From a virus: 64,000 nt of DNA. The stretch spans positions 5,146-69,145 of IMG/VR virus record IMGVR_UViG_3300048586_000179; one strand, given 5' to 3'. The notes beneath the pieces were generated by a model. It ran no database searches. It was not told the origin of the DNA and saw only the letters and a program-made list of their open reading frames with translations. A program made the position numbers and the translations under genes. This document shows, in pieces, positions 10,984-39,379 of the stretch (position 1 is the first letter of the stretch; every line of letters begins with the position of its first letter).

Positions 10984-11035
10984 CGCGTTCTCCTTTTCCT
11001 ATGGGGACCACGCAAAAGACCGCCCCGAAGGGCGG

Positions 11036-14071: not shown

Positions 14072-14161
14072 GTCAGTCGGTCCTTTCAGGTTGTCCTATG
14101 GGGACCCCGGCAAACGGGCGAAAAGCCCACCCCCGAAGGGGTGGTCAGTTGGGGCAGTGGC

Positions 14162-14449: not shown

Positions 14450-14525
14450 GGTCGTCTCCTCTGGGGCGTCTTGCTCCTATGGGGACCACGGCAAAATGCC
14501 CCGCCCGAAGGCGAGGCGAGGTGGG

Positions 14526-14843
14526 TCAGACCGGATCTGCAGTCATCAGATGCTTGGCGACAGCCCGGCGCAGGGTGGCAATCAGGCTCACCAGGCCCCC
14601 GTTCCAATGCATGGCCTCCACAGGTTGCTCCGGCGCCTTGAACACGAGAACGGGCTCGGCTCCCTGGTCCATCAGCTCGCCCTGCGCGCGGTGCAGCGGG
14701 GTCGTCTGTTCGACAGGGAGCACGCGCTCCCATTCTCGGGCAGGCGGCAGTGCATTGTGGCGGGCGACATAGTCGTCGAGGTCTTGGTGAGGCAGGATCA
14801 GCACCAGCCGGCGCTCTTCGTGCCAGAAGAATTTCGTTGTCAT
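14526..14843 (-). CDS. hypothetical early protein
   Basis: ATG after AGGAGA. Confidence 0.7.
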   Translation of the reverse strand: MTTKFFWHEERRLVLILPHQDLDDYVARHNALPPAREWERVLPVEQTTPLHRAQGELMDQGAEPVLVFKAPEQPVEAMHWNGGLVSLIATLRRAVAKHLMTADPV

Positions 14844-14913
14844 GCGGGTCTCCTTCTGTTCCCTATGGGGACCACGGGAAACGCCCACCCCCGAAGGGAT
14901 GGGCCCAGAAAGC

Positions 14914-15111
14914 TCAGGCCGAACGAACCCGGAAGGCTTTGGCGAGAGTGGTGTTCTCCTGCCGAAGGTCGTTGAGTTCACGGTCTTTGTTCCTCAGCCG
15001 CTCCTGAAGGGTGGCTTCGGCTGCGACGGCTTTCTTGACGTCGCGGTAAAGCGCGTTTTCACGCGCTGTCCAAGGTTTCTCGCTCAAGGCGATCTCCTCG
15101 TGGGGCATCAT
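14914..15111 (-). CDS. small coiled-coil protein
   Basis: Cassette gene; true start may be TTG at 15087 after GAGGAG. Confidence 0.6.
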   Translation of the reverse strand: MMPHEEIALSEKPWTARENALYRDVKKAVAAEATLQERLRNKDRELNDLRQENTTLAKAFRVRSA

Positions 15112-15243
15112 GATGGCCCGGCGCAGCCCCTGGCTGCCGGGTCAGAAGGGCCGCAATGGCTCTCCGATGGGGACCACGAATGTTTCACGGCGAACATTGA
15201 GGGCACTTGGGAAAAGCCCCCGCCCAGGGGCGGGGGTCGGGTT

Positions 15244-15600
15244 TCAGAGGCAGAGCGCAATGATGCGCGCTTCCAGTTCCTCGCGCGCTGCCTTGGCGGG
15301 CAGGGCGGCGAGGCGGGGCTTGTTGGCCTCGAGCCAGAAGTTGATCTCGTAGGTGGCTCCGACATAGTCGTCGACCAGATCCCAGCCACCGAGCTGACGG
15401 ATCGCGGTCTCGTTCCGGCGTGACCGGATCTCGGTCTGGCGCTGGGTGAGCTGCATGTCCATCTTGGTGGCGGCCGGGTTGGCCGGGTGATGATGCACGG
15501 AGTGGTCCTCGAGGACCATCTCGCAGGCTGCGAAGTCGTATTGTCCCGCCTCGGCGGCCCCGGCAAGGGCAACGAGCGCGGCAATAAGCGTGGTCTTCAT
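15244..15600 (-). CDS. exported protein with signal peptide
   Basis: MKTTLIAALVALAGAAEA Sec-type signal. Confidence 0.7.
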   Translation of the reverse strand: MKTTLIAALVALAGAAEAGQYDFAACEMVLEDHSVHHHPANPAATKMDMQLTQRQTEIRSRRNETAIRQLGGWDLVDDYVGATYEINFWLEANKPRLAALPAKAAREELEARIIALCL

Positions 15601-15672
15601 GGGGGTCTCCTCTTGGTTGTTCCCTATGGGGACCCCGAAAAGGCCACCCCGTAGCGGCGGGGTGGCTCAATC

Positions 15673-16083
15673 CTAGTGTCCGTGCTTGGTGTCGGTACGC
15701 TGCACGACAGCCCAAAGGTTGACGGGGTCGATGATCGTCACCTCCCAGATGAAGGGGCTTGGCTCACTCGACAGGACCTTGGATCTGGGTTTGGCCTCAT
15801 CGGTCTTGCCCGCGACCACGATACTGTCCTGGTGCACCACGAAGACCTGGTCGCCGACACTGATGTGCTGGGCGATGGTGGACTTCTGCAGGTGCACGAG
15901 GGCGGACTTGCGGTCACGGGCAAGGCGATGATCCATGACGCTCAGGACCAAAACCTTGTGGTGAGACATGGCGTGCCATTGTCTCTGGGTAATGACGTCG
16001 ACGCCCAGCTCCCTGAAGGATGCTGCGCGACCGCGGTTGCGGTAGACGTTCGGATTGCTATCCGTATGGTGTTCATAGGGCAT
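15673..16083 (-). CDS. hypothetical early protein
   Basis: ATG after AAGGA. Confidence 0.65.
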   Translation of the reverse strand: MPYEHHTDSNPNVYRNRGRAASFRELGVDVITQRQWHAMSHHKVLVLSVMDHRLARDRKSALVHLQKSTIAQHISVGDQVFVVHQDSIVVAGKTDEAKPRSKVLSSEPSPFIWEVTIIDPVNLWAVVQRTDTKHGH

Positions 16084-16190
16084 TTGTGATCCTTTCTCGA
16101 TACGATGCCTGGAAGCCACACCATGCGGCTTCCCATGGGGACCACGCTAATCCCGGTAAGCGAAAAGACCGCCCCCGGAGGGGCGGTGGA

Positions 16191-16592
16191 TCAGCCCGGC
16201 TTGTAGAGGCCGGACTTCTCGAGCACGTCGCGCAGGACCGCGTTGGCCTCGTAGAAGTCGAGACGGTAGCAGCCGGCGGGTGCCCCGGGCTTGTCCGCCC
16301 AGAGGCGGCGCATCCCGTGCCTGTCGATCGACTTGGTGGCGAGGCGAAGGCGGATTTCGCGCTTCATCTTCTCGACCACCGCATTGTCGTCGGTGTCCAG
16401 GCGGAAGTGCATCGGCTTCTTCCACCCATCCTGGGGCAGAAGGTCGGCGTGCTCCTTGCACAGCCGCTCGATGCGGGCAGGGCCTTCCTTGCGGCCGCGG
16501 CAGAACTCGATGTAGGCGATCGGCTTGCGATCCCAGTATCGGGTCCCTTCCGCGACGCCGTCGTGAAAAGCCAGATATGCATAGTAGGTCAT
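16191..16592 (-). CDS. hypothetical early protein
   Basis: Cassette gene. Confidence 0.7.
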   Translation of the reverse strand: MTYYAYLAFHDGVAEGTRYWDRKPIAYIEFCRGRKEGPARIERLCKEHADLLPQDGWKKPMHFRLDTDDNAVVEKMKREIRLRLATKSIDRHGMRRLWADKPGAPAGCYRLDFYEANAVLRDVLEKSGLYKPG

Positions 16593-16673
16593 GATCTGGG
16601 GTCCTTTCGTGGTTGTTCCCTATGGGGACCACGGCAAAGGCAAATGGACCGGACCCGAAGGCCCGGCCAGGAG

Positions 16674-16862
16674 TTACCGATGCGGCGTGCGCGCTTTCTG
16701 CCGATGCCGGTCCTGGATCAACTCCAGGATCTCGGCTACCTCGTCGATGCCATCCAGGCCTCTTCCGGACCTGAGGATCGCAGCCGCCCGTTGTCGCAAG
16801 TCCGCAGTTGAGAGATGCTGAATATCCTGCATCTCAGGTTGGCGGATGTAGCTCGTGAGCAT
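16674..16862 (-). CDS. hypothetical early protein
   Basis: Cassette gene with AGGAGA. Confidence 0.65.
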   Translation of the reverse strand: MLTSYIRQPEMQDIQHLSTADLRQRAAAILRSGRGLDGIDEVAEILELIQDRHRQKARTPHR

Positions 16863-16911
16863 GTGCTCTCCTTCCTCGCGCTTGGGGTTACTCCCGATGG
16901 GGACCCCGCGG

Positions 16912-17099
16912 AAAAAAGAACCTTCTCACGCTCTCTCCCATCCGTGCGAACGGGTGGGGCTTCACGCTGACATTCCATCAACTGCGCGGCTTCCACCGAC
17001 CTTCTCCAGAGCCTGTCACGGCCCGATCTCTGTCGGCTTTCACTGCTTCCCTCGCATGCTTGACAGCGGGTGCAGTTGAGAACGGATGTCTCGTTCTCC
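16912..17099 (-). ncRNA. putative structured ncRNA (cassette without ORF)
   Basis: Between motif 17103 and U6 tract; stems GAGAACG/CGTTCTC, AACTGC/GCAGTT, CCGAC/GTCGG, CCGT-TCGC-ACGG; no RBS-linked ORF. Confidence 0.55.
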
Positions 17100-17168
17100 T
17101 ATGGGGACCACACAAGATTGCGAAAAGAGACCCACCCCTTTCAGGGCGGGTCGGGCGCTCTCGGCCGG

Positions 17169-17291
17169 TCACTCGGCGACGGCGGCGGTCCAGCTAGCCT
17201 GCAGGTAGGGCAGGGTGTCGCGCTGGAACCTCTCGCTTGTCACATGGAGGTATCCGGTGAAGAGAATGGCCGCGATGTATATCCATTTCAT
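17169..17291 (-). CDS. small membrane/secreted peptide
   Basis: 40 aa MKWIYIAAILFTGYL..., AGGAGA RBS. Confidence 0.65.
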   Translation of the reverse strand: MKWIYIAAILFTGYLHVTSERFQRDTLPYLQASWTAAVAE

Positions 17292-17328
17292 GGCAGGTCT
17301 CCTTTTCCCATGGGGACCACACGAGGCG

Positions 17329-17475
17329 AAAAAACGATGCCTTGCGGCATGTCCCCAGCCTGGATCCTCCATTCACCGTCGCCCTGGCGAACCAGGGATC
17401 AGGCGTCTTTCAGACCTGCCCCTTGCGGGGCTACCAAGCGATGCCTTTCAGCATGCTGGGCGAGGCCGTTATTCC
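17329..17475 (-). ncRNA. putative structured ncRNA with GNRA/UUCG tetraloops
   Basis: Outer stem CCCAGC/GCTGGG enclosing GAAA, GCAA and TTCG-capped hairpins, then terminator ATGCC-GCAA-GGCAT and U6. Confidence 0.7.
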
Positions 17476-17501
17476 TATGGGGACCACGGATTATCGGGGC
17501 G

Positions 17502-17775
17502 AAAAAATGCTGCCCTTGGGCGGCATCGACTGCTTTGTTGGTTTTACCGCACCGGTAGAGGCCGGCGCCGTCCAGCATCAGGACGATCGCAGTCTTGGCG
17601 TATCACCCCACGCCCGTGGGTCTCAATCCCCACCCTGACCATTCTTGAGTTCATGGTCGGGTGGGCCGTCTGGCAATCACTCTTCGGGAATGTCATTCGC
17701 GTCTTTTGCCAAACGGGAAACTTGCGTGAAGCAAGTCCCTCTGCGACTTTGTGCCGCCGCAGATTTCTGCATTCC
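17502..17775 (-). ncRNA. putative ~270-nt multi-hairpin ncRNA
   Basis: At least 6 stems followed by terminator; no RBS-linked ORF on the minus strand. Confidence 0.65.
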
Positions 17776-17990
17776 TATGGGGACCACGGATTATTCCGGC
17801 GGCCCGACTTCTCCCGGGCCAGGTCAATGATCCACTCGGACACCCACCCCTCGTCCAGCTGCATCTGCTCGTAGACCATCAAACCCACGATGTAGTCCTG
17901 CTGGAACTGCGTCAGCCCAAGGCCAGGCAGCGCCTGCCTGACCGTCTCCAACGCCTCCTCGAGCGTGGGGATCAGCGCATCACTCGCCAC
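17775..17990 (-). CDS. hypothetical protein
   Basis: GTG start overlapping upstream gene; TAG stop lies within the first array motif. Confidence 0.5.
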   Translation of the reverse strand: MASDALIPTLEEALETVRQALPGLGLTQFQQDYIVGLMVYEQMQLDEGWVSEWIIDLAREKSGRRNNPWSP

Positions 17991-18135
17991 GATCCGGTTC
18001 CCACAGGCGACCCGTGAAATCCCGGTCGCCCAGCTGCATGCGCGTCCCGTCCGCACCCAGCCCCATCTCCTCGAGGAATTCCTCCTCATCATCCTGGAAA
18101 TCGTCGTCCTCCAGGTCGTCATCCTTGGGTGGCAT
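17980..18135 (-). CDS. small very acidic protein
   Basis: MPPKDDDLEDDDFQDDEEEFLEE; GGAGA RBS. Confidence 0.6.
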   Translation of the reverse strand: MPPKDDDLEDDDFQDDEEEFLEEMGLGADGTRMQLGDRDFTGRLWEPDRGE

Positions 18136-18308
18136 GGTGGTTCTCCTTGACAAGGTTTCCGCTCGACCCCCTCGACAAGCGAAACGCGGCGAAGCATAGT
18201 GCCCTTGCGCCCTGTCGAGGGGGCGCAAGGGTAGTCTAGCAATCATGGAGAGTTGGATGCAAGGACCGGGAAGTCCCTTGACCAAGATGCTGTGCATGGC
18301 ACCAGATC

Positions 18309-19241
18309 ATGCCTCAAGATAGCGGCGCAGCATCACAGACGCAAGACACTATTGTCAATGTTGCCTTGCGATTGGCTGATAACGGGGTGCCTGTCTTCCC
18401 CGTCAGCACGAAGAAGACACCCGTCTGGGAGAAAGGCGAAAGCCCGAACGGAAGGGACGGGCTGCATGCGGCGACGACCGATCCCGACGAGGTCGAAGCC
18501 CTCTTTGCCCACCCCCGCACCGCAGGGATCGGCATGCCCACCGGCAAGATCAGTCGGGTCACCGTCATCGATGTGGACTGCGGACGTGGCAAGCCCCACC
18601 GGGATGCCGCGATGGAATGGCTCGATGGCGCGCGCAAGAGCGCGCTCTGGGGCGCGACCGTGGTCCGGACAGGGTCGGGTGGCCTCCATTACTACATGCG
18701 CTACAGGGAGGGCCTGAAGACCGGGGCCAATGTCTGGGCGATGGGGGTCGATTGCCGCAATGATGGGGGCTACGTGGTCGTGCCGCCCTTCATGGGGTAT
18801 CGGTACGAGCGCCAGACGGACCCCGATGACTGGCCCGCAGTGCCTGAGCCGCCGGCCTCCCGCGTCAAGCGCACGATCGTCGACCAGAAGGATGGCCGCT
18901 GCCCACCCGAGATCATGGCCATGCGCGACCTGATCGAGGGCAAGGTCACATGGCACGACCCGGTGCGGGACATCATCGCGCACCTGGTGGGGTCAGGGTG
19001 GTCGGATGCCGAGATCCTGCGCTTCACCTTCCAGTGGACCTGGCCGGGCTACAACCCGGCTGAGACCTTCGAGCAGATCTGCGTCATGCTGAATGGCGCG
19101 CGGGAGAAGTGGACCAAGAGCCAGAAGCCCGAAACCCTGACCGACCTGCGTCTCGACAGGTTCGTGATGCTCTGGGATCGGTGCAGCACCGCCGAAAAAT
19201 TGGAAATCATCAAGATGATCAAAGAGGTAGCACCCGAATGA
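18309..19241 (+). CDS. bifunctional primase/polymerase (Prim-Pol, AEP)
   Basis: VFPV..KKTP, VIDVD, VRTGSGGLHYY, DCRNDGGYVVVPP. Confidence 0.9.
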   Translation: MPQDSGAASQTQDTIVNVALRLADNGVPVFPVSTKKTPVWEKGESPNGRDGLHAATTDPDEVEALFAHPRTAGIGMPTGKISRVTVIDVDCGRGKPHRDAAMEWLDGARKSALWGATVVRTGSGGLHYYMRYREGLKTGANVWAMGVDCRNDGGYVVVPPFMGYRYERQTDPDDWPAVPEPPASRVKRTIVDQKDGRCPPEIMAMRDLIEGKVTWHDPVRDIIAHLVGSGWSDAEILRFTFQWTWPGYNPAETFEQICVMLNGAREKWTKSQKPETLTDLRLDRFVMLWDRCSTAEKLEIIKMIKEVAPE

Positions 19242-20815
19242 CGGACGAGATCACACCGCCCGCAACCCCCGTCCGTCGTCTTTCCCGCGTGATGATCCCC
19301 CCGGAAGAACAAGCCCGGCTCCTTGCCGAGCAGGCGGAGGACGCCGGGACCGATCCACTTCAGACCCGCATGGGGTGGAGCTTCGCGCAGAACTACCACG
19401 AGCGCTTTTGCTTCGATCATGGGCTTGAGCAATGGATGGTCTGGAACGGTAGTATCTGGACCGTCGACACCTCCGGCCTTCCCCTCTACGAGATGATGCA
19501 GTTCGGGGATCGGCTGATCCGTGTTCACCCCACAGCGCGACGGCAACTGAGCAGCGTGGGCTTCTGCCGTGGCGCTCTGGAAGCGGCAGCCCACGACAGA
19601 CGCATGGCGCGGGCGCATGACGAGTTCGACAATGCCCCGAGCATCATCGCCACTCCCAAGGGTTACATCGACCTGGAGACTGGTGAGGTGAGGCAGCCAG
19701 ATCGATCCCTGAATATCACCAGGTCGACAGCGATCAGTCCGGAGCCGGGGCCATGCCCGATGTGGATGAACTTCCTCGCAGCCGTCCATAAGGGGCAGGA
19801 AGAGATCATCGACTGGCTGCAGAAGCTCTGCGGCGAGGCCCTGCTCGGCCGGCAGACCGACCACCACTTCGTGTTCTTCTACGGCGATGGCGGCAATGGC
19901 AAGTCGCAGTTCCTCGAAACCCTGTCAGGCATCATGGGAGACTACGCCGCGCAGGCTCAGGCCGGCACGTTTACCCAGCCAGAGGGGCGTAGCTTCGGAG
20001 GGCAGCATGAGCACGTCCTGGCCATGCTGGAAGGCGCCCGGCTGGTGCTGGTGTCCGAGCCGGGGGATGGCGAACAGTGGAACATGGGGCGGGTGAAGCA
20101 ATGGACCGGCGGCGGCATGATCACCGCCGACCTCAAGTACAAGGCGGCCCAGACCTTCAGGCCCGCAGGACTGCTCGTGCTGGAGAGCAACAAGGCCCTC
20201 AAGGTCGAGGTGGTCAACAATGCGGTGGCAAGGCGGCTGCGCTACGTGGTCTGGCCGCACAAGTTTGCCGGCACCGGATACGAGCACCTGAAGATCGATG
20301 ACCTCGCCCTGAAGATGCTGGCCGAGGAAGGGCCGCAGATCTTCTCCTGGATGATCGAAGGTGCACAGAGGGTCTTGCGAGAGGGCCTGCGAACCACCCC
20401 CGAGATCGAAAGGACCAGCGCCAGCTACCTCAAGGAACAGGATGTCGATCAGCGCTTCATCGAGGATTGCCTCGAAGTCGATGAACACGTCCAGCCCGGC
20501 GTCGATCTGCAGGATGCTGTCACCGTCTACAACGAATGGGCACGGAACACGGAAGCCCCGGCGCGCAAGAACATCGGAACCCGGCTGGTCAGCAAGGGAC
20601 TGGAAGTCTCCAAGAGCCACCCCCGACGCTACATCCGCAAGCACAGCCTGTCAGCGAATGGCATGGCCTACATGAGCGCCGCCCTCATGCGGAGGATCAG
20701 GAGCAAGGAACTGACGAAGGCCGACGCTGAGCGTTGGCGCAAGACCCTGCTCGAATGGGACCTGAAGGGGGATGATGGAGCCTACGTGAATGATCTACTT
20801 GGGGTTGTTAGTTAA
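19238..20815 (+). CDS. D5/P4-family SF3 primase-associated helicase
   Basis: D5-N region, FFYGDGGNGKS Walker A, VKQWTGGG, ARRL. Confidence 0.9.
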   Translation: MTDEITPPATPVRRLSRVMIPPEEQARLLAEQAEDAGTDPLQTRMGWSFAQNYHERFCFDHGLEQWMVWNGSIWTVDTSGLPLYEMMQFGDRLIRVHPTARRQLSSVGFCRGALEAAAHDRRMARAHDEFDNAPSIIATPKGYIDLETGEVRQPDRSLNITRSTAISPEPGPCPMWMNFLAAVHKGQEEIIDWLQKLCGEALLGRQTDHHFVFFYGDGGNGKSQFLETLSGIMGDYAAQAQAGTFTQPEGRSFGGQHEHVLAMLEGARLVLVSEPGDGEQWNMGRVKQWTGGGMITADLKYKAAQTFRPAGLLVLESNKALKVEVVNNAVARRLRYVVWPHKFAGTGYEHLKIDDLALKMLAEEGPQIFSWMIEGAQRVLREGLRTTPEIERTSASYLKEQDVDQRFIEDCLEVDEHVQPGVDLQDAVTVYNEWARNTEAPARKNIGTRLVSKGLEVSKSHPRRYIRKHSLSANGMAYMSAALMRRIRSKELTKADAERWRKTLLEWDLKGDDGAYVNDLLGVVS

Positions 20816-20861
20816 GACGGTGAAGGGGTCAGTATCAACCGGTGGTTGCCTTTCAGAAGAA

Positions 20862-20967
20862 GAAGTCCCAAAATTTTGGGACTTCACCTATAAGTTCGCT
20901 CCACGCGCGCTTGCGCGCCCGCGCGGGATAGGGCAAAGTTATGTGGCAAGTCCCAAAATTTTGGGAC
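20862..20967. repeat. two perfect palindromes GTCCCAAAATTTTGGGAC (putative origin)
   Basis: 24-bp palindrome 20862-20885 and 18-bp copy 20950-20967 just after the helicase gene. Confidence 0.75.
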
Positions 20968-20983
20968 CCGAAAACGAGGGAGC

Positions 20984-21253
20984 ATGACCATGATGAAGCT
21001 GTTCAAGGACGACGCCGACATTGCCGACATCGACAAAGCCATCGAAACCATGAAGGAGGTCGAGCGGCTGCTGACCTCGATCATCGTGCGAGGTGATGAC
21101 TGGATGAAGGCCGTGCCCGTGCGAGCGTCTACCGCCGACAGGCTGAACGCGCACAAGAACCGCATCCTGAAGATGAGGATGGACATGCAGGAAGATGGCT
21201 TCCAGGTCCGGAGGGCGCGTCGCCTGCCACCTCCGCCGGACGGCTACAGCTGA
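20984..21253 (+). CDS. hypothetical protein
   Basis: 89 aa, GAGGGAG RBS. Confidence 0.65.
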   Translation: MTMMKLFKDDADIADIDKAIETMKEVERLLTSIIVRGDDWMKAVPVRASTADRLNAHKNRILKMRMDMQEDGFQVRRARRLPPPPDGYS

Positions 21254-21297
21254 CCGCGAAAAAAGGAGCGCCCGCATGATGCGGACGCCCTAGACCA

Positions 21298-21474
21298 TCA
21301 GTTCGTTTCGCGCTTATAGCGTTTGAACCAGTTCACCGAGGTCCGCTGCAGGGTCAGCTTCCTGCCCACATACATGGACAATCCAATGAGCCCCGCGAGT
21401 GCGGTGACGGTGATCACGGTCGGCGCGCTGATTGTCAGCGATGCGTTGGTGATGGCGGCAAGCGTGTGTTCCAT
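21298..21474 (-). CDS. small membrane protein (leftward cassette)
   Basis: 58 aa with TM helix; motif at 21517 upstream, hairpin+U-tract downstream. Confidence 0.65.
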   Translation of the reverse strand: MEHTLAAITNASLTISAPTVITVTALAGLIGLSMYVGRKLTLQRTSVNWFKRYKRETN

Positions 21475-21516
21475 AGGGAACGCTCCTCTTTTGTCGAAAG
21501 CAGGATTGCTTCCTAT

Positions 21517-21644
21517 GGGGACCACGCAACCCATTGAAAAAGCTAATGATTGGTAAAACATATTCGTGGCCGCAGCGCGGCGCAGCCGCGCGCCGCCTCA
21601 TCAGCTTGCGTGATTAGTGTAAACTGTCGCGGCATGTGGTCCCC
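21517..21644. promoter_or_regulatory. divergent pair of the cassette promoter motif with operator copy 2
   Basis: Leftward core 21517-21525, rightward GTGGTCCCC 21636-21644, 24-bp element 21603-21626 between. Confidence 0.8.
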
Positions 21645-21673
21645 ATAGGAAACAACACCTTAGGAGACTGAAC

Positions 21674-30900: not shown

Positions 30901-31094
30901 GCAAGGGGGCGGGTGTCGATGGGATGCCCGACAAGCTTGCAGCTGTCGAGGAGACGGCGGCATATCTGGCACTCATGTACCCGGCACTCTCGGAGCAGGA
31001 AATCCGGGCGATGGCTGAGCGCTATGTCGGCATCAAGAGCGAGGCGGCTTGGGCCAACGCTGATCCGTTCGCTTTCCTTGAGGGGGTGAGCTGA
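27990..31094 (+). CDS. large internal virion (ejection) protein
   Basis: 1034 aa, low-complexity A/G/P regions, position before giant protein. Confidence 0.6.
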   Translation: MAGGNTAYDWRDFMFDTRGTGAPGGSAGLGDAPGPSVNPDMPKSRLNLSFAPEVVELPPSFSVANRDVRKTFGVGFRDQLFNTPEWRAAKSGAAKAAAEKKAAEDWLADKPAAERDLVRNLDDEIKAGKDRIKKATDAEDWPTVKAESERVATLEAEASRRALENTRKASDPNRLYAGANAEQKKAADEIARFKKERGKAWDAKKTNMKNIAKGGAATALLGGAAYLGGQLMSDAEEKRRSDPTKVAVDDVVMRVLSGEEVSPDEIYMMEQFYADDPDKVAAILRTGEEVRGGAAPVEPPPAAAPEAPASPPVGPRIENLPLTDVAYREGAEKPAVVRPTPTYDPEVMRAILEDPEGGPEVAQWYKDNAEAEDLRRRNNAFLDASIENTAAAAGSPDWFLDYLRGQGEQSRAVDAGGELPVSDNWWNNYVVPTVRASDEGWQRLYGRIDEAFPDDPATFWENPIGYTRNAMVPESWQDAIDGALEGVTPQDMLGINFLLGQTTDEMKNLPYSAVRDGILSPTFYAGVLEDPALSAAYGEAMRSMGGEPLRGPDPITAPITQGAAPPAFWDPGIPPELNAGADAGVGVGAYDTGMPSMEDLKRLEEIGALGANPDGSNMTVAQYIQQGNLAGAGMQAGLPMFAGSPMPVQRGTVIPEDPRLGLMPVPQLPQLPMAPSDMPIEARVPQGTPGSFLDENAGDFRRADNEWNKLATMLGLTPTGEPVRGGAGLSAPVAPLPAAPAAPVTPGGAGDQWALSNPFGSPAVAGEVEDARAAEEIARYNEEVAKKDEAVSALVDQDEVLNPRGQSWTSGPSGQTWGAGLSSDAGALSMGSPAASAPVVATPMTPGGNPAPGAKGDFNVSRERGAAGLAEDAEAAEEELNWINRMMRDKLGMTDASQRNKAAEALISFGSSVLASRGDDWQALGEGLQAGYGTVTQINDEEAAALAAQQEAILEENRWRAEMALKELAARKGAGVDGMPDKLAAVEETAAYLALMYPALSEQEIRAMAERYVGIKSEAAWANADPFAFLEGVS

Positions 31095-34000
31095 TGGTCG
31101 ATCAGGCTGGGCTTTCGTTTGGCCCATCGACGTCTGCGGGTGTGGGTCTCAACGAACCAGCGCCACCTCTCACCATGCAGGATCGTGTTCGGGAGGTCAT
31201 GCGCCTGCGTCAGCAGGGGTATTCGCTTGACGAGGCCCGGCGTGCGGTTGGCGGGGCTGATGCCGTGACAGCGCCACCACCACCGTCGCAACCGACCCCT
31301 GACCCTGGTGGCATGTCCCGCCTGGGCCTGATGGTTCCGGGCGCGCTCTCCTACGCCTCGGATGTCGTTTCCGGGGCGGGCACCATCATCGAAAACCTTA
31401 CGGGGATCGACGGGATCGACGAGGGGAGCCGGGCGCTTGGTGATGCCATCGGGCCGAGCGAGATGCAGGAGGCCACGCGCGATGAGCGCTATGCCGAGCG
31501 CGCCCGCCGGGCAGAGGCTGGCGAGATCAGCGCCACGGAGCATTTCATCGGTGACGCGCTCGATGCCACGGCGGAGAGCGCGCCGGCCTTCGTTGGTGGT
31601 CTTGCGGGGGCCAAGGGCGGTCAGCTGGTCGGGCGCGCGGGCTACGCCGCGCTGTCGCCCGCGGCTCGGGCCATTGGCCTCGACAAGGTGGGCGCTGTCG
31701 CTGGAAAGGCGCTGACCGCTGTCGTTCCGGGCGCAAAGAAGCTGAAGGGCATGAAGCCGCTTTTGGAGAAAGGCTTCGCCACCCTGGGTGCCTTTGCTGT
31801 TCCGACTGCTGCCTATCTCGAGAGCGGCCGGGATCGCGCGATCAAGGAGGGGCTCGATGTGGCTGATCCGGAAGTCCAGGACCGGATTGCAACGCAGGCC
31901 GTCGCGCGGGGCGCGCTGGAAAGCCTTCCCATCCTGTCGATCTTTGGCCGGCTGACCAACCGGGCCGCCCAGGTGGAGGGGCGGGTTGCTGCGGCGTTCA
32001 AGGTGGGTGGGAAGTCTGCGCTCTTTGAGGGGACGCAGGAGGTCGCGGACCTGGCGCTGGAAGAGCTTTACCTCAACGACGAGTTGCGGAGCCGCCTGAA
32101 CCAGGATGACTGGGCCGAGATCATGCCGTTCCTGGTTGACCGCTTCGGTCGGGATGCCGCTCTTGCGATGGTTGCCGGTGGCGGTGTGGGTGCGGCGGTG
32201 GGTGTGCCATCGGGCTTTACCCAGCAGGCCGTCACGAACCAGCAGGCCGCGCAGGAAGTTCGTATGGCGGCCCAGGTCCTTGAGCCGATGGGGATGGGGA
32301 CGCAGGAGCTTGAGGAGCTGAGCCGGACACCTGAGGGTGCCGCCAAGTTGCGGGAGGCGGTCCAGCGCATCTCACTTGTTGAGCGTGCCCGGTCCACGCA
32401 GATGCGGGAGATTGACCGTCGCGCCGAGGAGGGCGCGGAGGAAGAGGTGGCCATGCTCCGTGAGCAGGTCAACAACCAGCTTGACGCCCGCATCGACAAG
32501 ATCGCGGCGTTCCTGGGCGCTCCGAAGTCGCTTGAGGATGTGCGCCGCGAGCGCAGCGCAATGGAGAAGGACCGGAAGCGCCGGGCGATGGACCGGATCG
32601 CCGAGCGTGGGTTCAAGCCACAAGCGGACCTGACGGCCGAGGTTGCCGAACAGGTTGCGAACCGCTTGGACACGGCTGAGGGCCAGGTCGACCGGCTCCG
32701 GAGCCGGGTCGAGGCGACGGCCAACCCGGAGCGCAAGGCGGAAGCCCAGCGTGAACTCGACGAGGCGCTGGCTGAGCGCCAGCAGGCCCGGATCGATGCG
32801 CGCATGAAGGTTGAGGGGCTGACCCCGGCGCAGGCCCTGAAGGCCGTCGAGGGCGAGGACAGGCAGACCGATGCTCAGCGCCGCCGGCAGGCGCAGAGCG
32901 CGGCGCGCGAGCGCGCCGTCGAGCGCCAGATGGAGATCGAGATGCCGGAGACGATGGCTCCGGCGCTGCGCGTCCAGCGCGCACAGGAGATCATTGCCGA
33001 GGCCGAGGCGGATGAACGCCCGGATGCAGGCCTCGACGGGAAGATCAAGCGCCTTGAGCGCCAGAGACGGGCCGCGACATCCCCTGAAGATGTTGATAGG
33101 CTCACAGACGAGATCGCCGATCTTGAGGCACGGCGCGGTCTGCCCACACCTGCGGTGGAAGCGGCGCGTCGTGTTCTGCAGGCTCAGGGTGTAGCGGTCC
33201 CGCCGAGCGGTGAGGCGTCAGGGCCCACAGCTCAATCCGCCGAAGCTGAGGGTTTGCAGCCTGAGGGGACGGCATCAGGGCCGGTGGGCGCGGCAGCGCC
33301 TGCCGGTCCGCGCAATGCGCTCGACACCCCCACGCTGGCCGCTCGTGAGGCAAAGGCCATTCGTGAAGCGTCGACACCAGAGGCGCAGCTCGCAGCATTC
33401 GATGCTGCACTGTCAGATCGTCGTGTGGTTGATCCGGTAAAGCTCGAGGAGGCAAGAACCACCTTCGAGGTGGAGAGTTTTGCTGGTGGTGATCCTGTGG
33501 CTGCAGCTGAGGCCGCTCTGGCCACCGTGGTCGCGACCGACCGCGAGGCGGGCCGCCGGGCAATGGCCGCGAAGACCTACAAGCGCGCGCCGCGCGCCGA
33601 GGGCTTCGACATCGAGGGCGGCAACCCGTTCCGGGATCTCTCTGGCGAGATCGAGACCGGCAAGGGGCTGGCCGCCCTGGAGGCGTCGATGTCAGAGTGG
33701 TCGGCCAAGTCTGGCTTCGAGGCCGCAGCCCATGTCGACGAGGCGACGGGCGAGGTCCTTGGCGTCGTGACGAACGACATGGTCAACGCCATCATGCCGC
33801 CGAAGGCTGGCCTCAACGACCGCAGGATCACCTTCACCCACACCCACACCGCCAACACGCCTTTTTCGTCCGCTGACGTGCGTGCGGCGCTGATGTCAGG
33901 ACAGCCCTTCCGGGCTGTCCTGCCTGATGGGTCGGTCATCGCCATGCGGCCGACGCGTCGCTACAATCCGGACGGCTTCTACAAGGTCTTCCGCGCCGTC

Positions 34001-37000
34001 AGGGAATATCTCGCCGACAAGCTGCCTTCGGACATGCCATTCGTGGATCGCGCCGTGATCCGCCAGGAGGCATTCCTGCAGGCCATGGAGATGGCTGGTG
34101 CCATCGAGTACCGGTCGCCCTTTCGTGGGCTGACCGATCAGCAGAAGGACTACGTCAATGCAGCAGTCGACGCCACGGCCGCCGTCAGTGCCACAGCCTT
34201 TGTACGAGATGGAGCTCCTGGACGAGCGGGAACTGCGGAAGCTGGCGGCCCAGGGGGACAGGCTGGCGAGCGAAGAGCTGTCGATGAGGCGGTTGGAGAG
34301 GAAGAGCCTGACGCCGACGACTTTGACGCCGAAGGTGTAGACTTCGAGCAGGGGGTCATCGGTTACCTCGATCCTCGGAGTTCACAGCGGCAGAAGCGGC
34401 CGTCCTATAACGAGGGTCGGGTCGCCGAGATCGCCGACAAGATCATCGCTGACGTCACCGCCCAGCGGGCGAAACGGACGATCGCCGCGGACATGATCCG
34501 TGAGGGCAGGGTCACGCGCGAGCAGCTGATTGCGGGTATCGGCGAATACCTCAAGAGCGACGGCCGCAAGCAGATGTACACGGTGACCGATGTGCGCCGT
34601 GCGATGTTCACGACCCCGATCACCTTTGACATGCTCTACCAGCGGGCCGAGGGGCGGACCAATCGCGCTACCAAGGCGGGCACGAAGCTTTGGAGCGTGA
34701 AGCCTGAGTACCTTCCGGAGTTCCAGCTGGCGCTGGACCTCGAGCGCCTGATCAATAATGCCGGCATGGGTGGTATCCGGCGGATCGAGAACAAGTTCGC
34801 GGCCGGTGGCGGCTTCGGTGAGGGCAAGACCTACTTCCTCGAAATCTCACCCGAGCTTCGCAGGTTCACCGAGCTGATCGGGCCGGAGGGCATGCGCTTC
34901 GACCCGCCCATGGCCGACCCCAACAACACGAGGCAGCTCAAGCGCAACCGGAACAGCAACCGGCTCTCGCGGGAGGGCCTGGATGTTGCCGCGCGCACGG
35001 CCCGCTACCTGCAGGCCAATCGCTACAAGATCGATCGGGACAAGCTCTACGCGATCGAGCCTGATGACCTGATCTCCGGCAAGTCGCTGGCGCGGGATGG
35101 GATAAAGCGGTCTGATATCGCGAAGTGGGACGCCATGCGTCCTGCGATTGCTGGCGTATCCTTGAAGACCATGCCGAAGGACCAGGCCTACTTCGTCAAG
35201 AACATCGGCTGGAAGATCGACGAGAAGCGGCGCGATGCGGCCAGCCGCATCCGGCAACTCCGAACGGCCTACGAGACCTTCGTGGCCGAGCATGGTGCCG
35301 ATGCGGATGTCGGCTTCATGTACCAGATCGACGACCGTGGCCGGATCTATGCCGATGGCTCTTTCCACCCGCAAGCGGACGGCGACATCAAGGCGCTCTT
35401 CTCGGTGGATGGGAAGAACATCGTTGACGACATGGTGACGGTCGACAACTCGGCGTCCGGCTGGCAGATCAACGCGCTGATGGCCTATGACCACGTCGCG
35501 GCGCCGCACCTGAACATGGGGCGGGGTCAGGCGACGCAGGAGGGTTACCGGAAGTCGGACCTCTATACCAACACGCTCGAAGCCATGCGGCAGCGGCTCT
35601 TGAGGGATGCGGAGGCCGAGATCCCCGCCGGGCTTGGCGTGCGGGAGCGGGCCAAGGCCGAGAAGCGCAAGCGCTGGGCGCGCTACTTTGTCGACACCAT
35701 CTTCCCCTCGGCAGACCCCAAGTCATGGAAGCTCGATCGGGATGGGATCAAGCCCGCCATCATCGCGATGAACTATGGCGGCCTGGACAAGAACTTCCGC
35801 AGGGTGCTGCAGAAGGTCCTGAAAAACGACATTCGCCTGCCTGACGGCGACAACGAGGGCGCCTGGTCGTACCTGACCGAGGCAGGGATGGAAGGTGTGG
35901 AGAAGACCGCTCCGCACGCCCTTGCCCTGCAGAAGTGGACCGTGGCGAATGTCGCCGCGCTGTCGCGCGCCCTCTACGCCAAGTACGGCGAGGCGACCCC
36001 GACGATCGATGTCACCATCGGCATCGATGGCAAGATCTCCGTGAAGCGGCAGAAGCGGGTCGAGACCGAGACCCGCATCAAGCAGCTGGCGAACGAGGTG
36101 ACCGTCAAGTTCAAGGTGAACAAGCCCGAGCCGGACCACGACAAGGTCGCCAAGGCGGTCTGGGCGAACCTGGTCCAGTCCTACGATGCGGCTGTCCTTC
36201 ACCGCACGGTCGAGCGGTACAAGCGCGCGACGGATGGTGCCTACATCACCACGAACCATGACAGCTTCACCGTGCCGCGTGAGCAGGAGGGCGCGATTTC
36301 CTCTGCGGTTCGCGAGAGCATGCGGACGATCATGGAGCAGGTCGATGTTCCCCAGTCTCTTTACGAGGAGCTGACCGCAATCGCCCGCCGGGAGGGGGTC
36401 GAGGTCGATATCCAGCCGTTCGACAACCTGGGCCGCTATAGCTACGACGACCTCATGACGTCGACGCCGGTATTCGGTGAGGACGTTCTCAAGGTGGACG
36501 AGCGGGGTAAGCCCTATGACTTCGTTCCTGAATACGCCGAATTGCCCGAGGCCGGTGCCGAGTTGCGCCGCGCCATAGACGACGAGGTTCCGGTGGGTGG
36601 TGGCAGCACACCAACTACCGGATCGCCCCCTGCCTCTGTCCCGGTTCAGGGGCAGGGGGCATCACGCATCGAGGATCTGGCGCCCGAGGTTCGGCGCGCG
36701 GTCGATGTGGCGGATTACATGGCCTCACTGCCGGAGAGCCGTTCGCTCCTGCAGAAGGTGCAGGAGATGGCCGCCTCACCCAAGGTGGCCAATCGCACCT
36801 TGATGCAGATCATGGAAGACACGTTCTTTAACGCCGCGGCCCCGATCCGCAGGCTTGAGATCGCGGTCAAGGGGGCATTGCCGCAGGGTGCCGAGAGCGC
36901 CTTCAAGGCAGTCGAGATGGCGGTCCAGGACAGTGGCCGTCAGGAGGCGCTGCTCTACTACGGCGCGGCCAGGTTTGGACAGTACGGCGAGTATTCTGTC

Positions 37001-39379
37001 GCCCCTGGCACGATGGGTCTTTACGACATCTTCAAGCTGGCCGGCGGCGAGGGGGCTGACCGTGGCCAGCGTCTGCAGGACTGGATGCAGTGGATGGTCG
37101 CCCGCCGGGCGCAGGACCTCGCGGCCCGCGGGATCAAGACGCCCCTTACGCCCCAGGACATCCAGCAGGCACTGGCCAAGGGCGCGAATATCCCGGAGTT
37201 CCAGCAGGCAGCGGATGCCTGGAAGAAGTTCAACGACGCCAACCTCGACTTCCTCGAGCAGTCGGGGCGGATCAACGCGGCCCAGAAGGCAGCGATGCAG
37301 GCTGATGACTTCTACGTCCCCTTCTACCGGGCAGACGAGCGCGTCGATGGCACCTCGCCGGAGCTGGAGCTGCCCGAGTATCGCGCGGGAACGGTGAAGA
37401 CGGGCGTCCTGTCGCGAGACCCGGGGATCATGAAGATCAAGGGTGGCGACAAGCTCAGGATCGACAACCTGATGCAGAACATGATCCGCAACAGCCAGGC
37501 CATGGTGGCCGCAGGCATGCGGAACAGGGCCGCCAACCAGACCTTCGACCTGATGAAGGTCGCGGGGATGGCCCGGGTCGAGCCGCTGACGACCAAGAAG
37601 CCTGATCCGAACGCGGTGCGTGTCTGGCAGAATGGCGTCGAGAGTTGGCTGGTTCCCGAGGGGCGTGAGGCTTATCCGGTGATGATGGCCTTGGCTGGCA
37701 TGCAGCCGGTCCAGCAGGGCCCGGCGATGCAGTTCATGACGGACCTTGCCAACATCTTCCGTCAGGGCATCACGCTCACCCCGCCCTTCATGATCCGCAA
37801 CGCCATTCGTGGTGCTGTCTCGTCGGGTATCATGACGACTGGGGCCAACCTCACCCTGACCAACAACACCATCACCGGCTTCCGGGATGCCTATAACAAC
37901 GGGCAGGCCACCCAGGCCTTCAAGGCGCAGTCCGGGATGGGCGATTATCGGTTCGGTGGCACCGACACCGGCTTCGGCAAGAACGACATCCTGATCGAGT
38001 TCGGCCTCTCGCCGAAGACGATGGGGTCGCGCTTCCGGAAGTTCATGGAGAAGATGGAGCATGTCGGCTCGGCCACCGAACTGGCCGACCGCATCGCGGC
38101 CCGTGAGACCATGATCGCCAACGGTATGCGGCCCGACGAGGCTTCTTACCAGGCCCTGACCATCATGAACTACAGCCGCAAGGGCAACAGCCAGGCGCTG
38201 CGCGCCTGGTTGCCGCTCGTGCCGTTCCTGAACGCGCGCCTGCAGGGCCTCTCGCGACTGGCCGAGGGCGCCGTGGGGCGGCGCGGGGCGCTCGGGCGCA
38301 GGCAGGCGCTGATGCAGATGGGGCTGAACGGCCTCATCTACTCGGCCTTCGGTGCTGCGGTCTGGCTCTGGAACGCCTCGGATGAGGAGCGGCGCGAGAA
38401 GTATGCACAGGAGCCGCTGTACCGGCGCCTGAACTTCCACATCGTCTACGTGGGCGACACCACCCTCTACATCCCGAAGGCCTTCGAGTTGGGGCACCTC
38501 TTTACCTCGATCCCCGAGCTCTTTGCTGACGCGATGGTTGGCGACATGAACGAGGGTGGCGCTGAAGGTCTCGCGATGGTCGGCTCCGGCATCTTCAAGA
38601 TCGCCTACGACACCGTCGCCATGAACCTGATCCCCGCGGCGGTCCTGCCGAGTATCGAGGCCATGACGAACTTCAGCTTCTTCCGTCAGGCCGAGATCGA
38701 AGGGCAGCGCGAGCAGGACATGCTGCCGGCGGACAGGACGGCCGGTGCCTCCATGCTGTCGCGCCTGGTCGGGCGGGACATGGGTATCTCAGATCTGACC
38801 GGTATCTCGCCCACGATGATCGAGCACTGGCTGTCGAGCCACGGCGGGATCTATTACACCATGCTCAGCACGGCAGTGGAGATCGCAGCGGGTGATATGG
38901 GGCTTGCCCCGGTCCGGCCGGGCGGAGCCTTTGGCGACGTGCCGGTGATCTCGCCTGCGTTGACGGCGGCCTTCGGGTCGATGGTCAGGGATACCAACGT
39001 GGCGTCGACGCGGTTCATCGAGGAATACTACCGGACGAAGAACTACGTCACCCAGATCTACCGTTCAGCCGCTAACGCCGCGCGCGGCGGGGATGTCGAG
39101 TACGCCCGCCGCCTGCTGTCGGAGTTTGGCGGTGCGCCGGCAGCCTACAAGCTGATGAACCGGGCCGGTACGGAGCTGACGGACATCAACACGGCACTCA
39201 GGATGCTGCGGGACAACAGGGAAATGAGCCGCGAGCGCAAGCGCGCCGAGGAGGAGAAGCTGATCGCCCGGCGCAACGCGATCACCCGTGAGGTCGTGAA
39301 CACGATCAGGGCTATCGAGGAGAAACAGGGCACCGACTTCCGCAGTGGTCAGGGGGTATTGGCCAGGATCCTGCCGTGA
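31094..39379 (+). CDS. giant virion polyvalent protein: JAB-like domain + T7-type RNA polymerase + LPD38-like C-terminus
   Basis: DDRGRIY, VDNSASGWQ (motif A), RDGIKPAIIAMNYG (motif B), ANLVQSYDA, NHDSF (motif C); THTH...FSSAD; YIPKAFELG. Confidence 0.85.
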   Translation: MVDQAGLSFGPSTSAGVGLNEPAPPLTMQDRVREVMRLRQQGYSLDEARRAVGGADAVTAPPPPSQPTPDPGGMSRLGLMVPGALSYASDVVSGAGTIIENLTGIDGIDEGSRALGDAIGPSEMQEATRDERYAERARRAEAGEISATEHFIGDALDATAESAPAFVGGLAGAKGGQLVGRAGYAALSPAARAIGLDKVGAVAGKALTAVVPGAKKLKGMKPLLEKGFATLGAFAVPTAAYLESGRDRAIKEGLDVADPEVQDRIATQAVARGALESLPILSIFGRLTNRAAQVEGRVAAAFKVGGKSALFEGTQEVADLALEELYLNDELRSRLNQDDWAEIMPFLVDRFGRDAALAMVAGGGVGAAVGVPSGFTQQAVTNQQAAQEVRMAAQVLEPMGMGTQELEELSRTPEGAAKLREAVQRISLVERARSTQMREIDRRAEEGAEEEVAMLREQVNNQLDARIDKIAAFLGAPKSLEDVRRERSAMEKDRKRRAMDRIAERGFKPQADLTAEVAEQVANRLDTAEGQVDRLRSRVEATANPERKAEAQRELDEALAERQQARIDARMKVEGLTPAQALKAVEGEDRQTDAQRRRQAQSAARERAVERQMEIEMPETMAPALRVQRAQEIIAEAEADERPDAGLDGKIKRLERQRRAATSPEDVDRLTDEIADLEARRGLPTPAVEAARRVLQAQGVAVPPSGEASGPTAQSAEAEGLQPEGTASGPVGAAAPAGPRNALDTPTLAAREAKAIREASTPEAQLAAFDAALSDRRVVDPVKLEEARTTFEVESFAGGDPVAAAEAALATVVATDREAGRRAMAAKTYKRAPRAEGFDIEGGNPFRDLSGEIETGKGLAALEASMSEWSAKSGFEAAAHVDEATGEVLGVVTNDMVNAIMPPKAGLNDRRITFTHTHTANTPFSSADVRAALMSGQPFRAVLPDGSVIAMRPTRRYNPDGFYKVFRAVREYLADKLPSDMPFVDRAVIRQEAFLQAMEMAGAIEYRSPFRGLTDQQKDYVNAAVDATAAVSATAFVRDGAPGRAGTAEAGGPGGQAGERRAVDEAVGEEEPDADDFDAEGVDFEQGVIGYLDPRSSQRQKRPSYNEGRVAEIADKIIADVTAQRAKRTIAADMIREGRVTREQLIAGIGEYLKSDGRKQMYTVTDVRRAMFTTPITFDMLYQRAEGRTNRATKAGTKLWSVKPEYLPEFQLALDLERLINNAGMGGIRRIENKFAAGGGFGEGKTYFLEISPELRRFTELIGPEGMRFDPPMADPNNTRQLKRNRNSNRLSREGLDVAARTARYLQANRYKIDRDKLYAIEPDDLISGKSLARDGIKRSDIAKWDAMRPAIAGVSLKTMPKDQAYFVKNIGWKIDEKRRDAASRIRQLRTAYETFVAEHGADADVGFMYQIDDRGRIYADGSFHPQADGDIKALFSVDGKNIVDDMVTVDNSASGWQINALMAYDHVAAPHLNMGRGQATQEGYRKSDLYTNTLEAMRQRLLRDAEAEIPAGLGVRERAKAEKRKRWARYFVDTIFPSADPKSWKLDRDGIKPAIIAMNYGGLDKNFRRVLQKVLKNDIRLPDGDNEGAWSYLTEAGMEGVEKTAPHALALQKWTVANVAALSRALYAKYGEATPTIDVTIGIDGKISVKRQKRVETETRIKQLANEVTVKFKVNKPEPDHDKVAKAVWANLVQSYDAAVLHRTVERYKRATDGAYITTNHDSFTVPREQEGAISSAVRESMRTIMEQVDVPQSLYEELTAIARREGVEVDIQPFDNLGRYSYDDLMTSTPVFGEDVLKVDERGKPYDFVPEYAELPEAGAELRRAIDDEVPVGGGSTPTTGSPPASVPVQGQGASRIEDLAPEVRRAVDVADYMASLPESRSLLQKVQEMAASPKVANRTLMQIMEDTFFNAAAPIRRLEIAVKGALPQGAESAFKAVEMAVQDSGRQEALLYYGAARFGQYGEYSVAPGTMGLYDIFKLAGGEGADRGQRLQDWMQWMVARRAQDLAARGIKTPLTPQDIQQALAKGANIPEFQQAADAWKKFNDANLDFLEQSGRINAAQKAAMQADDFYVPFYRADERVDGTSPELELPEYRAGTVKTGVLSRDPGIMKIKGGDKLRIDNLMQNMIRNSQAMVAAGMRNRAANQTFDLMKVAGMARVEPLTTKKPDPNAVRVWQNGVESWLVPEGREAYPVMMALAGMQPVQQGPAMQFMTDLANIFRQGITLTPPFMIRNAIRGAVSSGIMTTGANLTLTNNTITGFRDAYNNGQATQAFKAQSGMGDYRFGGTDTGFGKNDILIEFGLSPKTMGSRFRKFMEKMEHVGSATELADRIAARETMIANGMRPDEASYQALTIMNYSRKGNSQALRAWLPLVPFLNARLQGLSRLAEGAVGRRGALGRRQALMQMGLNGLIYSAFGAAVWLWNASDEERREKYAQEPLYRRLNFHIVYVGDTTLYIPKAFELGHLFTSIPELFADAMVGDMNEGGAEGLAMVGSGIFKIAYDTVAMNLIPAAVLPSIEAMTNFSFFRQAEIEGQREQDMLPADRTAGASMLSRLVGRDMGISDLTGISPTMIEHWLSSHGGIYYTMLSTAVEIAAGDMGLAPVRPGGAFGDVPVISPALTAAFGSMVRDTNVASTRFIEEYYRTKNYVTQIYRSAANAARGGDVEYARRLLSEFGGAPAAYKLMNRAGTELTDINTALRMLRDNREMSRERKRAEEEKLIARRNAITREVVNTIRAIEEKQGTDFRSGQGVLARILP

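Follow-up and report, generated by a model that had tools for sequence, protein, structure and literature searches.

To our knowledge, virion-delivered single-subunit RNA polymerases (RNAPs) have so far come only from N4-like phages, where they are very divergent, use hairpin promoters and transcribe early genes only. The RNAP of phage T7 is a free early-gene product, whereas the polymerase we describe here is internal in a protein of 2,761 amino acids (aa). It is encoded in the window, by which we mean the whole stretch of viral DNA that was analysed computationally (64,000 nucleotides; bases 5146-69145 of one 69,145-bp virus record, IMGVR_UViG_3300048586_000179). Our main point is that this non-N4 phage holds, within an LPD38 polyvalent protein, a T7/mitochondrial-type polymerase that lacks a palm insertion, and that the phage also carries a T7-like candidate promoter. 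The reading we favour, and consider likely, is that the protein is a virion-delivered T7-type RNAP serving T7-like promoters.

N4 gp50 (Schitoviridae) resembles the giant protein in its layout. Both are encoded among virion genes, both place a single-subunit RNAP centrally between large N- and C-terminal regions, and both presumably follow the logic of bringing the polymerase in with the DNA. The differences begin with the sequence. There is no sequence similarity between the two proteins (best BLASTP E 6.2); gp50 contains four N4-specific Pfam families, including the plug (vRNAP_plug), a helical domain and vRNAP_dom, none of which occurs here, and lacks both PF00940 and LPD38. The peptidase signatures HExxH and HxxEH are absent from the giant protein. 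The candidate promoters of the window are not hairpins, and they extend over the entire genome instead of serving a few early genes. The N4 palm insertion, reported to dock the N4 C-terminal domain (PMC13434306), is absent here as well. According to Iyer et al. 2017 (PMC5512222), RNAP modules in polyvalent proteins are of the N4-like kind, occur in N4-like phages only and nearly always come with a fused zincin peptidase; the giant protein fits none of those three statements. Within the part of the literature that we covered, we found no polyvalent or LPD38 protein described as containing a T7-type polymerase, nor such an arrangement outside N4-like phages.

The other family to which the protein belongs is that of the LPD38 polyvalent proteins, represented by phi24B gp47, PTXU04_00025 and a protein of phage Pag-Yong1. 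With these it shares a homologous C-terminal ~900 aa (23-27% identity), a place among virion genes and a modular architecture with exchangeable enzymatic domains. Where the window's protein has a polymerase, the named proteins have a methylase, RelA/SpoT or DarB-like domain (by annotation). For phi24B gp47, a preprint reports detection in virions by proteomics and proposes a role as an ejection protein (bioRxiv 10.64898/2026.04.10.717836); PTXU04_00025 is reported to be required for efficient infection.

A T7/mitochondrial-type polymerase without a palm insertion

The giant open reading frame (ORF) and the elements of its polymerase domain are as follows, the motifs having been located by regular expression on the translated ORF 31094-39379 and the T7 positions taken from NC_001604 gene 1.

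31094..39379, plus strand: giant ORF, 2,761 aa, polyvalent protein with a polymerase domain (ORF translation)
34340..36598, plus strand: single-subunit RNAP domain, aa 1083-1835 (Pfam and AlphaFold2 (AF2) model)
35330..35350, plus strand: DxRGRxY motif, DDRGRIY, aa 1413-1419, aligned with T7 D421-Y427
35351..35431, plus strand: connector of about 26-27 residues at the site of T7's 78-aa palm insertion and of the N4 plug (hhalign gap and model)
35432..35467, plus strand: motif A, MVTVDNSASGWQ (contains VDNSASG), catalytic D1451, aligned with T7 D537
35738..35779, plus strand: motif B, RDGIKPAIIAMNYG, R1549/K1553/Y1561, aligned with T7 R627/K631/Y639
36050..36133, plus strand: long beta-hairpin, model strands 571-582 and 585-598, aligned by hhalign with T7 ~739-775 (specificity loop 740-769)
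36164..36190, plus strand: pre-motif-C helix ANLVQSYDA from aa 1691, with Q1695 opposite T7 H784
36248..36271, plus strand: motif C, TTNHDSFT, H1722 and catalytic D1723, the latter aligned with T7 D812

The domain has the right-hand fold of T7 and mitochondrial RNAPs, and its DxRGR, A, B, pre-C and C motifs follow one another as they do there, although the domain is only 14-19% identical to these enzymes. The motifs pair one to one with T7, both in phmmer searches of the Protein Data Bank (PDB) and in an hhalign alignment of the family profile (probability 99.1, E 1e-17), and the profile finds T7 RNAP in the PDB at E 1.5e-16. PF00940 (RNA_pol) matches aa 1448-1767 at 52.2 bits, against a cut-off of 22, and is found once in a six-frame search of the genome, at 56.1 bits. 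Gly1456 aligns with the Gly that follows T7 D537 by five residues. Low-complexity linkers, one acidic and the other Pro/Gly-rich, form the edges of the domain.

Searched against 1.84 billion representative proteins, the polymerase domain has 30 matches at E 0.001 or better. The 22 that reach E 1e-30 or better are all proteins of 1,269-3,859 aa; canonical T7-like enzymes come in no better than E about 1e-5. IMG/VR holds four related loci, and the polymerase part has no match in deposited phage genomes. A polymerase family this rare, and missing from those genomes, is therefore unlikely to have been studied. Across 27 aligned sequences D1413, R1417, D1451, K1553, Y1561, Q1695, H1722 and D1723 are invariant, as is the Asp of the ANLVQSYDA helix; R1549 varies, being Lys in P0009.

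The AF2 model of aa 1083-1835 was built on this 27-sequence alignment and has a mean pLDDT (predicted local distance difference test) of 88.7 and a pTM (predicted template modelling score) of 0.87. Foldseek ranks T7 RNAP first in the PDB (E 8.7e-19); this score and that of PF00940 lie well outside what chance would give. By VIA-align the model matches T7 RNAP at Z 25.6 (441 residues, 3.5 Å), yeast mitochondrial RNAP at Z 25.3 and human POLRMT at about Z 23, and N4 mini-vRNAP at Z 16.3 (598 residues, 6.4 Å, 10% identity); the T7-promoter complex 1cez aligns over 604 residues at Z 20.6. Among predicted viral structures, free-standing RNAPs of ~730-880 aa rank first (E about 1e-17), several of them from named podophages, and N4-like virion RNAPs (vRNAPs) rank lower, at 1e-9 to 1e-6. 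BLASTP of the giant protein finds T7 at E 7e-5. Since structure scores, PF00940 and BLASTP all favour T7 over N4 gp50, the domain is of T7/mitochondrial type and not of N4 type. Alignment of the family profile by hhalign with N4 mini-vRNAP and with gp15, a subunit of N4 RNAPII, pairs the DxxGR stretch only, at E about 0.07.

Pol I family DNA polymerases match the model too (Bst DNA polymerase I, Z 16.9), and Gln at the position of T7 H784 is what we take to be the Pol I state. One might thus ask whether the domain is a Pol I family enzyme, or else a catalytically dead relic. Either would surprise us greatly. RNAPs score Z about 25 against about 17 for Pol I, the residues opposite T7 Y639 (Tyr) and after motif A (Gly) are those of RNAPs, and there is no exonuclease domain. 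The catalytic residues, moreover, are all invariant, and hold in sequences down to 26% identity.

What sets the domain apart from T7 is a missing piece. The T7 palm insertion module is given as residues 450-527 (PMC5524818). In the family-profile alignment T7 ~452-533 faces a gap, and in the AF2 model the connector that takes its place consists of one short helix and one short strand. DxRGR and motif A are 38 aa apart here and 116 aa apart in T7, while motifs A and C are separated by 272 aa here and 275 aa in T7. None of 26 relatives has an insertion of at least 5 aa at the connector site. By a pattern count, the DxxGR-to-A distance is 37-42 aa in all 29 giant relatives scored; the giant proteins P0011, P0029 and P0032 gave no pattern match and stand outside that count. 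Three canonical matches of ~810-830 aa have distances of 115, 119 and 122 aa.

Two further comparisons help to place the connector. The phiEcoM-GJ1 polymerase is small (648 aa) yet keeps the module, with 121 aa from DxxGR to A (motifs located by pattern), so small size alone is not the source of the short connector. Free-standing P0034 (650 aa) and P0040 (518 aa) have the short connector, with 39 aa and, read from the sequence, about 38 aa, so the compact core also exists outside giant proteins. In N4 gp50 there are 139 aa from TxxGR at 1417 to the motif A Asp, which we take to be residue 1556; TxxGR-to-B distances agree with a gap of that length containing the plug. N4 RNAPII (gp15 and gp16), described as a minimal T7-like polymerase, is like the giant protein in having a small T7-like core, and the family profile picks up gp16 around motif A (E 3e-5; hhalign E 8e-5). 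It differs in being split exactly between DxxGR (gp15 residue 236/269) and motif A (gp16 ~74), in keeping about 107 residues between the two, and in standing outside any virion protein. The window's polymerase domain has no palm insertion module, whether lost or never present, and the short connector marks a clade and is not an artefact of alignment.

The Gln at the H784 site is another matter. It occurs also in P0037 and in phiEcoM-GJ1, both of which keep the palm insertion. These two combine Gln with the module, so Gln and the short connector are independent, and Gln is not special to this clade.

Ahead of DxRGR the domain has about 310-330 residues, against 420 in T7 (about 90-110 fewer), and this shortened part is still structurally alignable to the N-terminal domain and thumb of T7 in 1cez. 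As in T7, there are hairpins in the N-terminal domain and at the specificity loop, both identified solely from hhalign and the model's secondary structure. The first is a beta-hairpin (model residues 146-169) opposite the part of T7 that holds the intercalating hairpin. The long hairpin opposite the specificity loop is the least conserved stretch of the core (conservation 0.31-0.39) and the main indel hotspot of the domain, with insertions of 5-37 aa at its tip in 20 of 26 relatives. Such variability is as expected for a promoter-reading element.

The initial annotation had described a compact T7-type RNAP at 34400-36500, a span that equals aa 1103-1803 and lies inside the polymerase domain. 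Its motif positions and its two spacings of 38 and 272 aa are as it gave them. Its equation of the missing stretch with the T7 palm insertion is borne out by the profile gap, the model and the 29 giant relatives, and its suggestion of Gln for H784 by the alignment of the invariant Q1695. The structure comparison it proposed, with T7 RNAP and N4 mini-vRNAP, returned a right-hand fold closer to T7 (Z 25.6) than to N4 (Z 16.3). The T7-type class likewise stands, on PF00940 and the fold, with the qualification that this is one domain of a 2,761-aa protein and not a free enzyme. The N-terminal region is short, as it had said, and still aligns structurally to 1cez.

The giant protein and its probable place in the virion

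The protein around the polymerase contributes two further elements.

36659..39376, plus strand: C-terminal module of ~900 aa (aa ~1856-2761), with LPD38 at aa 2435-2596 (Pfam; PHROGs 18222 and 9854)
33662..34123, plus strand: JAB/JAMM-like metallopeptidase domain, aa ~857-1010 (motif residues and AF2 model)

The N-terminus of the giant ORF agrees with the starts of the relatives P0003 and P0004, and the G+C content at its third codon positions (GC3) is 0.81. From its N-terminal region the protein runs through the JAB/JAMM-like peptidase and the RNAP to the C-terminal LPD38 module, and a Pfam search at E up to 1 finds RNA_pol and LPD38 only. LPD38 scores 70.9 bits against a cut-off of 27. By tblastn, homologues of the C-terminal module occur in 18 deposited phage records, all of them large proteins (22-28% identity, E down to 4e-55). 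Every tblastn match falls in this module, and none of the 18 records matches the polymerase part. Judging by its gene context and its likeness to phi24B gp47, the giant protein is probably packed in the virion.

It would be tempting to see the compact polymerase as an adaptation to unfolding through the tail, as the initial annotation did. This idea has no support: the N4 vRNAP is ejected despite a palm insertion and plug (PMC13434306), and small size is therefore not required for ejection. The same source explains the passage of the N4 enzyme by a beads-on-a-string architecture, not by small size.

The domain at aa ~857-1010 has no Pfam match. E876, H916, H918, S925 and D928, which form an E...HxH...S..D motif, are invariant in 26 sequences, and the AF2 model of the domain has a pLDDT of 93.5. 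Its top structural matches are JAMM/MPN proteins, at weak scores (Z 7.3 to 5ld9 over 104 residues at 2.8 Å; Foldseek E 8.5e-3). The spacing is HxH-x6-S, where JAMM proteins presumably have x7. A search of the ESM Atlas with this region gave leads only, namely clusters of minor capsid proteins (0.90) and families of the JAB clan (0.76-0.81). We call the domain JAB/JAMM-like, which falls short of proof. It might serve in polyprotein processing or act on host ubiquitin-like defence conjugates.

Relatives of the giant protein carry other enzymatic domains. In some (for example P0016, aa 1861-2000) a domain of the Acb1 phosphodiesterase, which counters the cyclic-oligonucleotide-based antiphage signalling system (CBASS), lies between the polymerase and the C-terminal module, and in one (P0020, aa 1169-1305) a Zeta-toxin-like kinase domain precedes the polymerase. 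The window's protein has neither. These insertions are the modular make-up described for polyvalent proteins.

A candidate promoter and the proposed transcription of two gene arms

An ORF map guided by GC3 divides the window, which has a G+C content of ~64%, into two gene arms, with the promoter-like motif before left-arm genes and at the head of the right arm.

window up to ~19,000, minus strand: left arm, short genes
19109-20815, plus strand: primase/helicase gene, between the two arms
window 21,694 to ~59,200, plus strand: right arm, ~37 kb, co-directional genes
4650..21523, minus strand: array of the promoter-like motif (GGTCCCCWTNGG core), 23 exact copies on the left-arm gene strand
21638..21649, plus strand: sole exact copy on the plus strand, 45 nt ahead of the gene that opens the right arm

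The 12-mer pattern GGTCCCCWTNGG has 24 exact copies in the window where 0.15 would be expected, and shuffled sequences never held more than two. Allowing up to two mismatches gives 34 matches, among them 28 minus-strand sites in 4,650-21,523 and the plus-strand site. Five others were set aside: 9643+ and 11993+ arise at true sites whose partly palindromic core also reads on the opposite strand, and 10184+, 17996+ and 26045- look like chance. Most sites lie directly after a G+C-rich hairpin and T-run, and at a variable distance before a ribosome-binding site. The consensus reads T-run, sCGk, GGTCCCCAT-a-GG-rAAC, in which both G's after CAT-a are invariant. Its ...CATA/GG... core looks like the start region of two T7 promoters, phi1.1A and phi1.1B, which in the T7 record start at the G after ...CTATA, and it shares with T7 promoters a T-rich upstream edge as well as CATA/GG at the presumed start. 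By analogy, transcription may start at the first G of the invariant GG. In the closest relative from the viral collection, whose RNAP domain is 78% identical, the motif has 8 exact copies against none for a reversed control; these lie outside the virion genes of that contig and include a divergent pair.

The arrangement of these elements is regular. Hairpin and T-run, GGTCCCCWTNGG core, ribosome-binding site and short gene form a cassette repeated about 28 times on the minus strand of window 4650-21650. At the junction of the arms stands a divergent motif pair, 21512-21523 (minus) and 21638-21649 (plus), with a less G+C-rich spacer between. We also considered GGRAAC as the -35 box of an extracytoplasmic function (ECF)-type promoter and dropped it: the box is poorly conserved, the -10 would fall on the ribosome-binding site and the sigma factor was not found.

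The polymerase gene itself lies in the right arm, which the motif heads. A polymerase-dependent cycle therefore starts only if the enzyme arrives with the DNA. On the reading we favour, the whole giant protein would be made late, would enter the capsid by means of its C-terminal LPD38 module and would be ejected into the host together with the DNA. Residues ~1083-1835 would be an active, promoter-specific single-subunit RNAP of T7/mitochondrial type, recognizing double-stranded promoters of the motif consensus, probably through the hypervariable specificity-loop hairpin together with the hairpin of the N-terminal domain, and initiating probably at the invariant GG. On the left arm the enzyme would then transcribe about 28 short units, each with its own promoter and delimited by hairpin terminators, and a single promoter would serve the whole ~37-kb right arm. 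Such a phage would need no host RNA polymerase. Computation establishes the fold, the catalytic residues, the missing module, the domain layout, the gene context and the number and orientation of the motif copies, whereas packaging, ejection, catalytic activity, the polymerase-motif link and the start site are inferred.

An active polymerase could also be made during infection to serve middle and late genes, as T7 RNAP is, with host RNAP starting the cycle from promoters of a kind not recognized here. We regard this as unlikely, though it has more in its favour than the other alternatives. The region 17000-22500 holds one sigma-70-like site where 1.1 would be expected, so no excess of such sites is seen; the scan covered one promoter type in one 5.5-kb region, which leaves such a start some room. 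Packaging of the giant protein is our deduction from context, and the primase/helicase gene without a motif means that another promoter class exists. The polymerase gene, however, lies deep in an arm of virion genes, behind a phage-type motif, and the module to which it is joined is related to virion or ejection proteins. With the gene behind that motif, a polymerase made only after infection would have no obvious way to start the cycle.

Somewhat less probable again, in our view, is that the motif is not this polymerase's promoter at all, but a site for host RNAP with an unrecognized phage factor, or an RNA or operator element, and that the ejected polymerase has a narrower task such as transcribing a few early genes or priming replication. 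The polymerase and the motif are linked by co-occurrence only, and polyvalent proteins are reported often to carry primases for incoming DNA (PMC5512222). On the other side, Sigma70_r2 was not found in the genome, where the only trace of a sigma factor is one sub-threshold helix-turn-helix match to Sigma70_r4_2, and the phage has its own primase/helicase. The variable distance from motif to ribosome-binding site argues against a translational element, and the invariant GG after CATA parallels T7 start sites.

Several observations sit uneasily with virion delivery of a T7-type enzyme and its use of these promoters. The link between polymerase and motif is circumstantial. The motif was found in the record of one of five relatives, the closest; the other four are fragments without early regions or a 4-Mb bin in which it stays at background level. 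Upstream of the primase/helicase gene on the plus strand (19109-20815) no exact copy occurs, and so some transcription needs another signal. The chain is colinear with T7 from motif C to the end of the aligned core (about 72 aa against 71), and beyond the T7-equivalent end comes a conserved, confidently modelled extension; T7 activity presumably depends on a free C-terminus, and here the equivalent end is internal. T7 K472 lies inside the palm insertion on loop 469-475 and has been implicated by simulations in pyrophosphate release (PMC4658072). It has no aligned counterpart in the polymerase domain, so the kinetics may be different, or its part may fall to another residue.

This conserved extension beyond the T7-equivalent end matters for the boundaries of an active fragment. 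Cleavage after a conserved PVFG, which would give a T7-like C-terminus, was considered and dropped, the model showing a confident structured continuation.

The initial annotation had taken the promoter to be already identified. A candidate there is, in 24 oriented copies against 0.15 expected, but its connection to the polymerase is circumstantial, as said. The orthogonal expression tool it foresaw is plausible, with the proviso that the domain is internal and its T7-equivalent end continues into the conserved extension. If virion delivery and promoter use are as we suppose, a T7-type core of ~700 residues and a short candidate promoter could be tried as an orthogonal expression system, and a T7-type enzyme could do without the palm insertion and a Lys472-type residue. 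Tail delivery of a polymerase would then have arisen at least twice, on different scaffolds, this being a second and independent way after N4.

A wider proposal can be made, one that we find attractive and hold tentatively, without yet leaning towards it. A podophage-like lineage of ~60-70 kb may have reinvented the N4 strategy independently, with a minimal T7-type RNAP in an ejected LPD38 protein as sole transcriptase from early to late, with relatives in which the same protein also bears counter-defence enzymes, namely Acb1 against CBASS, a Zeta-toxin-like kinase and the JAB domain, and with a polymerase cassette that can be exchanged, presumably along with its promoters.

The phage, its relatives and neighbouring genes

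The virus record has direct terminal repeats and a completeness rating of 100%. On the left side, PHROG matches include an SNF2-type helicase, an HNH endonuclease and the primase/helicase; those of the right arm include tail fibres, a peptidase/lysin, a TerL-like protein, a portal and a major head protein. The portal is only 24-28% identical to its closest deposited relatives, which come from HTVC023P-type pelagiphages, roseophages CRP-901/902, Planktothrix phage Pag-Yong1 and Caulobacter phage RW. It follows that the virus belongs, as a distant member, to a loose group of phages of ~50-65 kb. A search of genome collections gave a contig in a metagenomic bin as its sole match. Of the sequencing runs listed as containing the phage, two are DNA runs, one of them with a small share, and none is an RNA run. 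Around the giant gene the order is tail fibre, lysin, 1,034-aa ORF, giant ORF, TerL-like gene and portal, and this order is kept in relatives.

The locus L004 (1436-7152) aligned with window 34340-40326 has a mosaic of identities: 41% in the polymerase domain, 78% in the C-terminal module and 95% in the TerL-like gene. Such a pattern suggests a polymerase cassette that has been exchanged or has evolved fast. A phylogeny of the motif A-to-C region was built from 29 of 32 rows (P0037, P0038 and P0040 were left out, the motif patterns having failed to cut them). Its deep branches are not firm: T7, the canonical matches, N4 RNAPII and N4 vRNAP all sit on very long branches, with a warning from the program that long branches meet, and we draw nothing from the tree about origin.

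Directly upstream of the giant gene lies a 1,034-aa ORF (window 27990-31094, plus strand) for which neither PHROG nor Pfam gives a match. The last two thirds of its product (aa 356-1031) are kept at 50% identity in L003, and it is a candidate for a further ejection protein. Downstream, the TerL-like ORF is only 316 aa long and is followed by an overlapping ORF of 239 aa (window 39376-41038), a pair conserved in L005 and L006; together they may be a split or unusually short terminase. Further along the right arm, three tandem paralogous ORFs of 181-191 aa (window 54104-55760, plus strand) have in common a repeated 60-nt stretch (repeat family D14).

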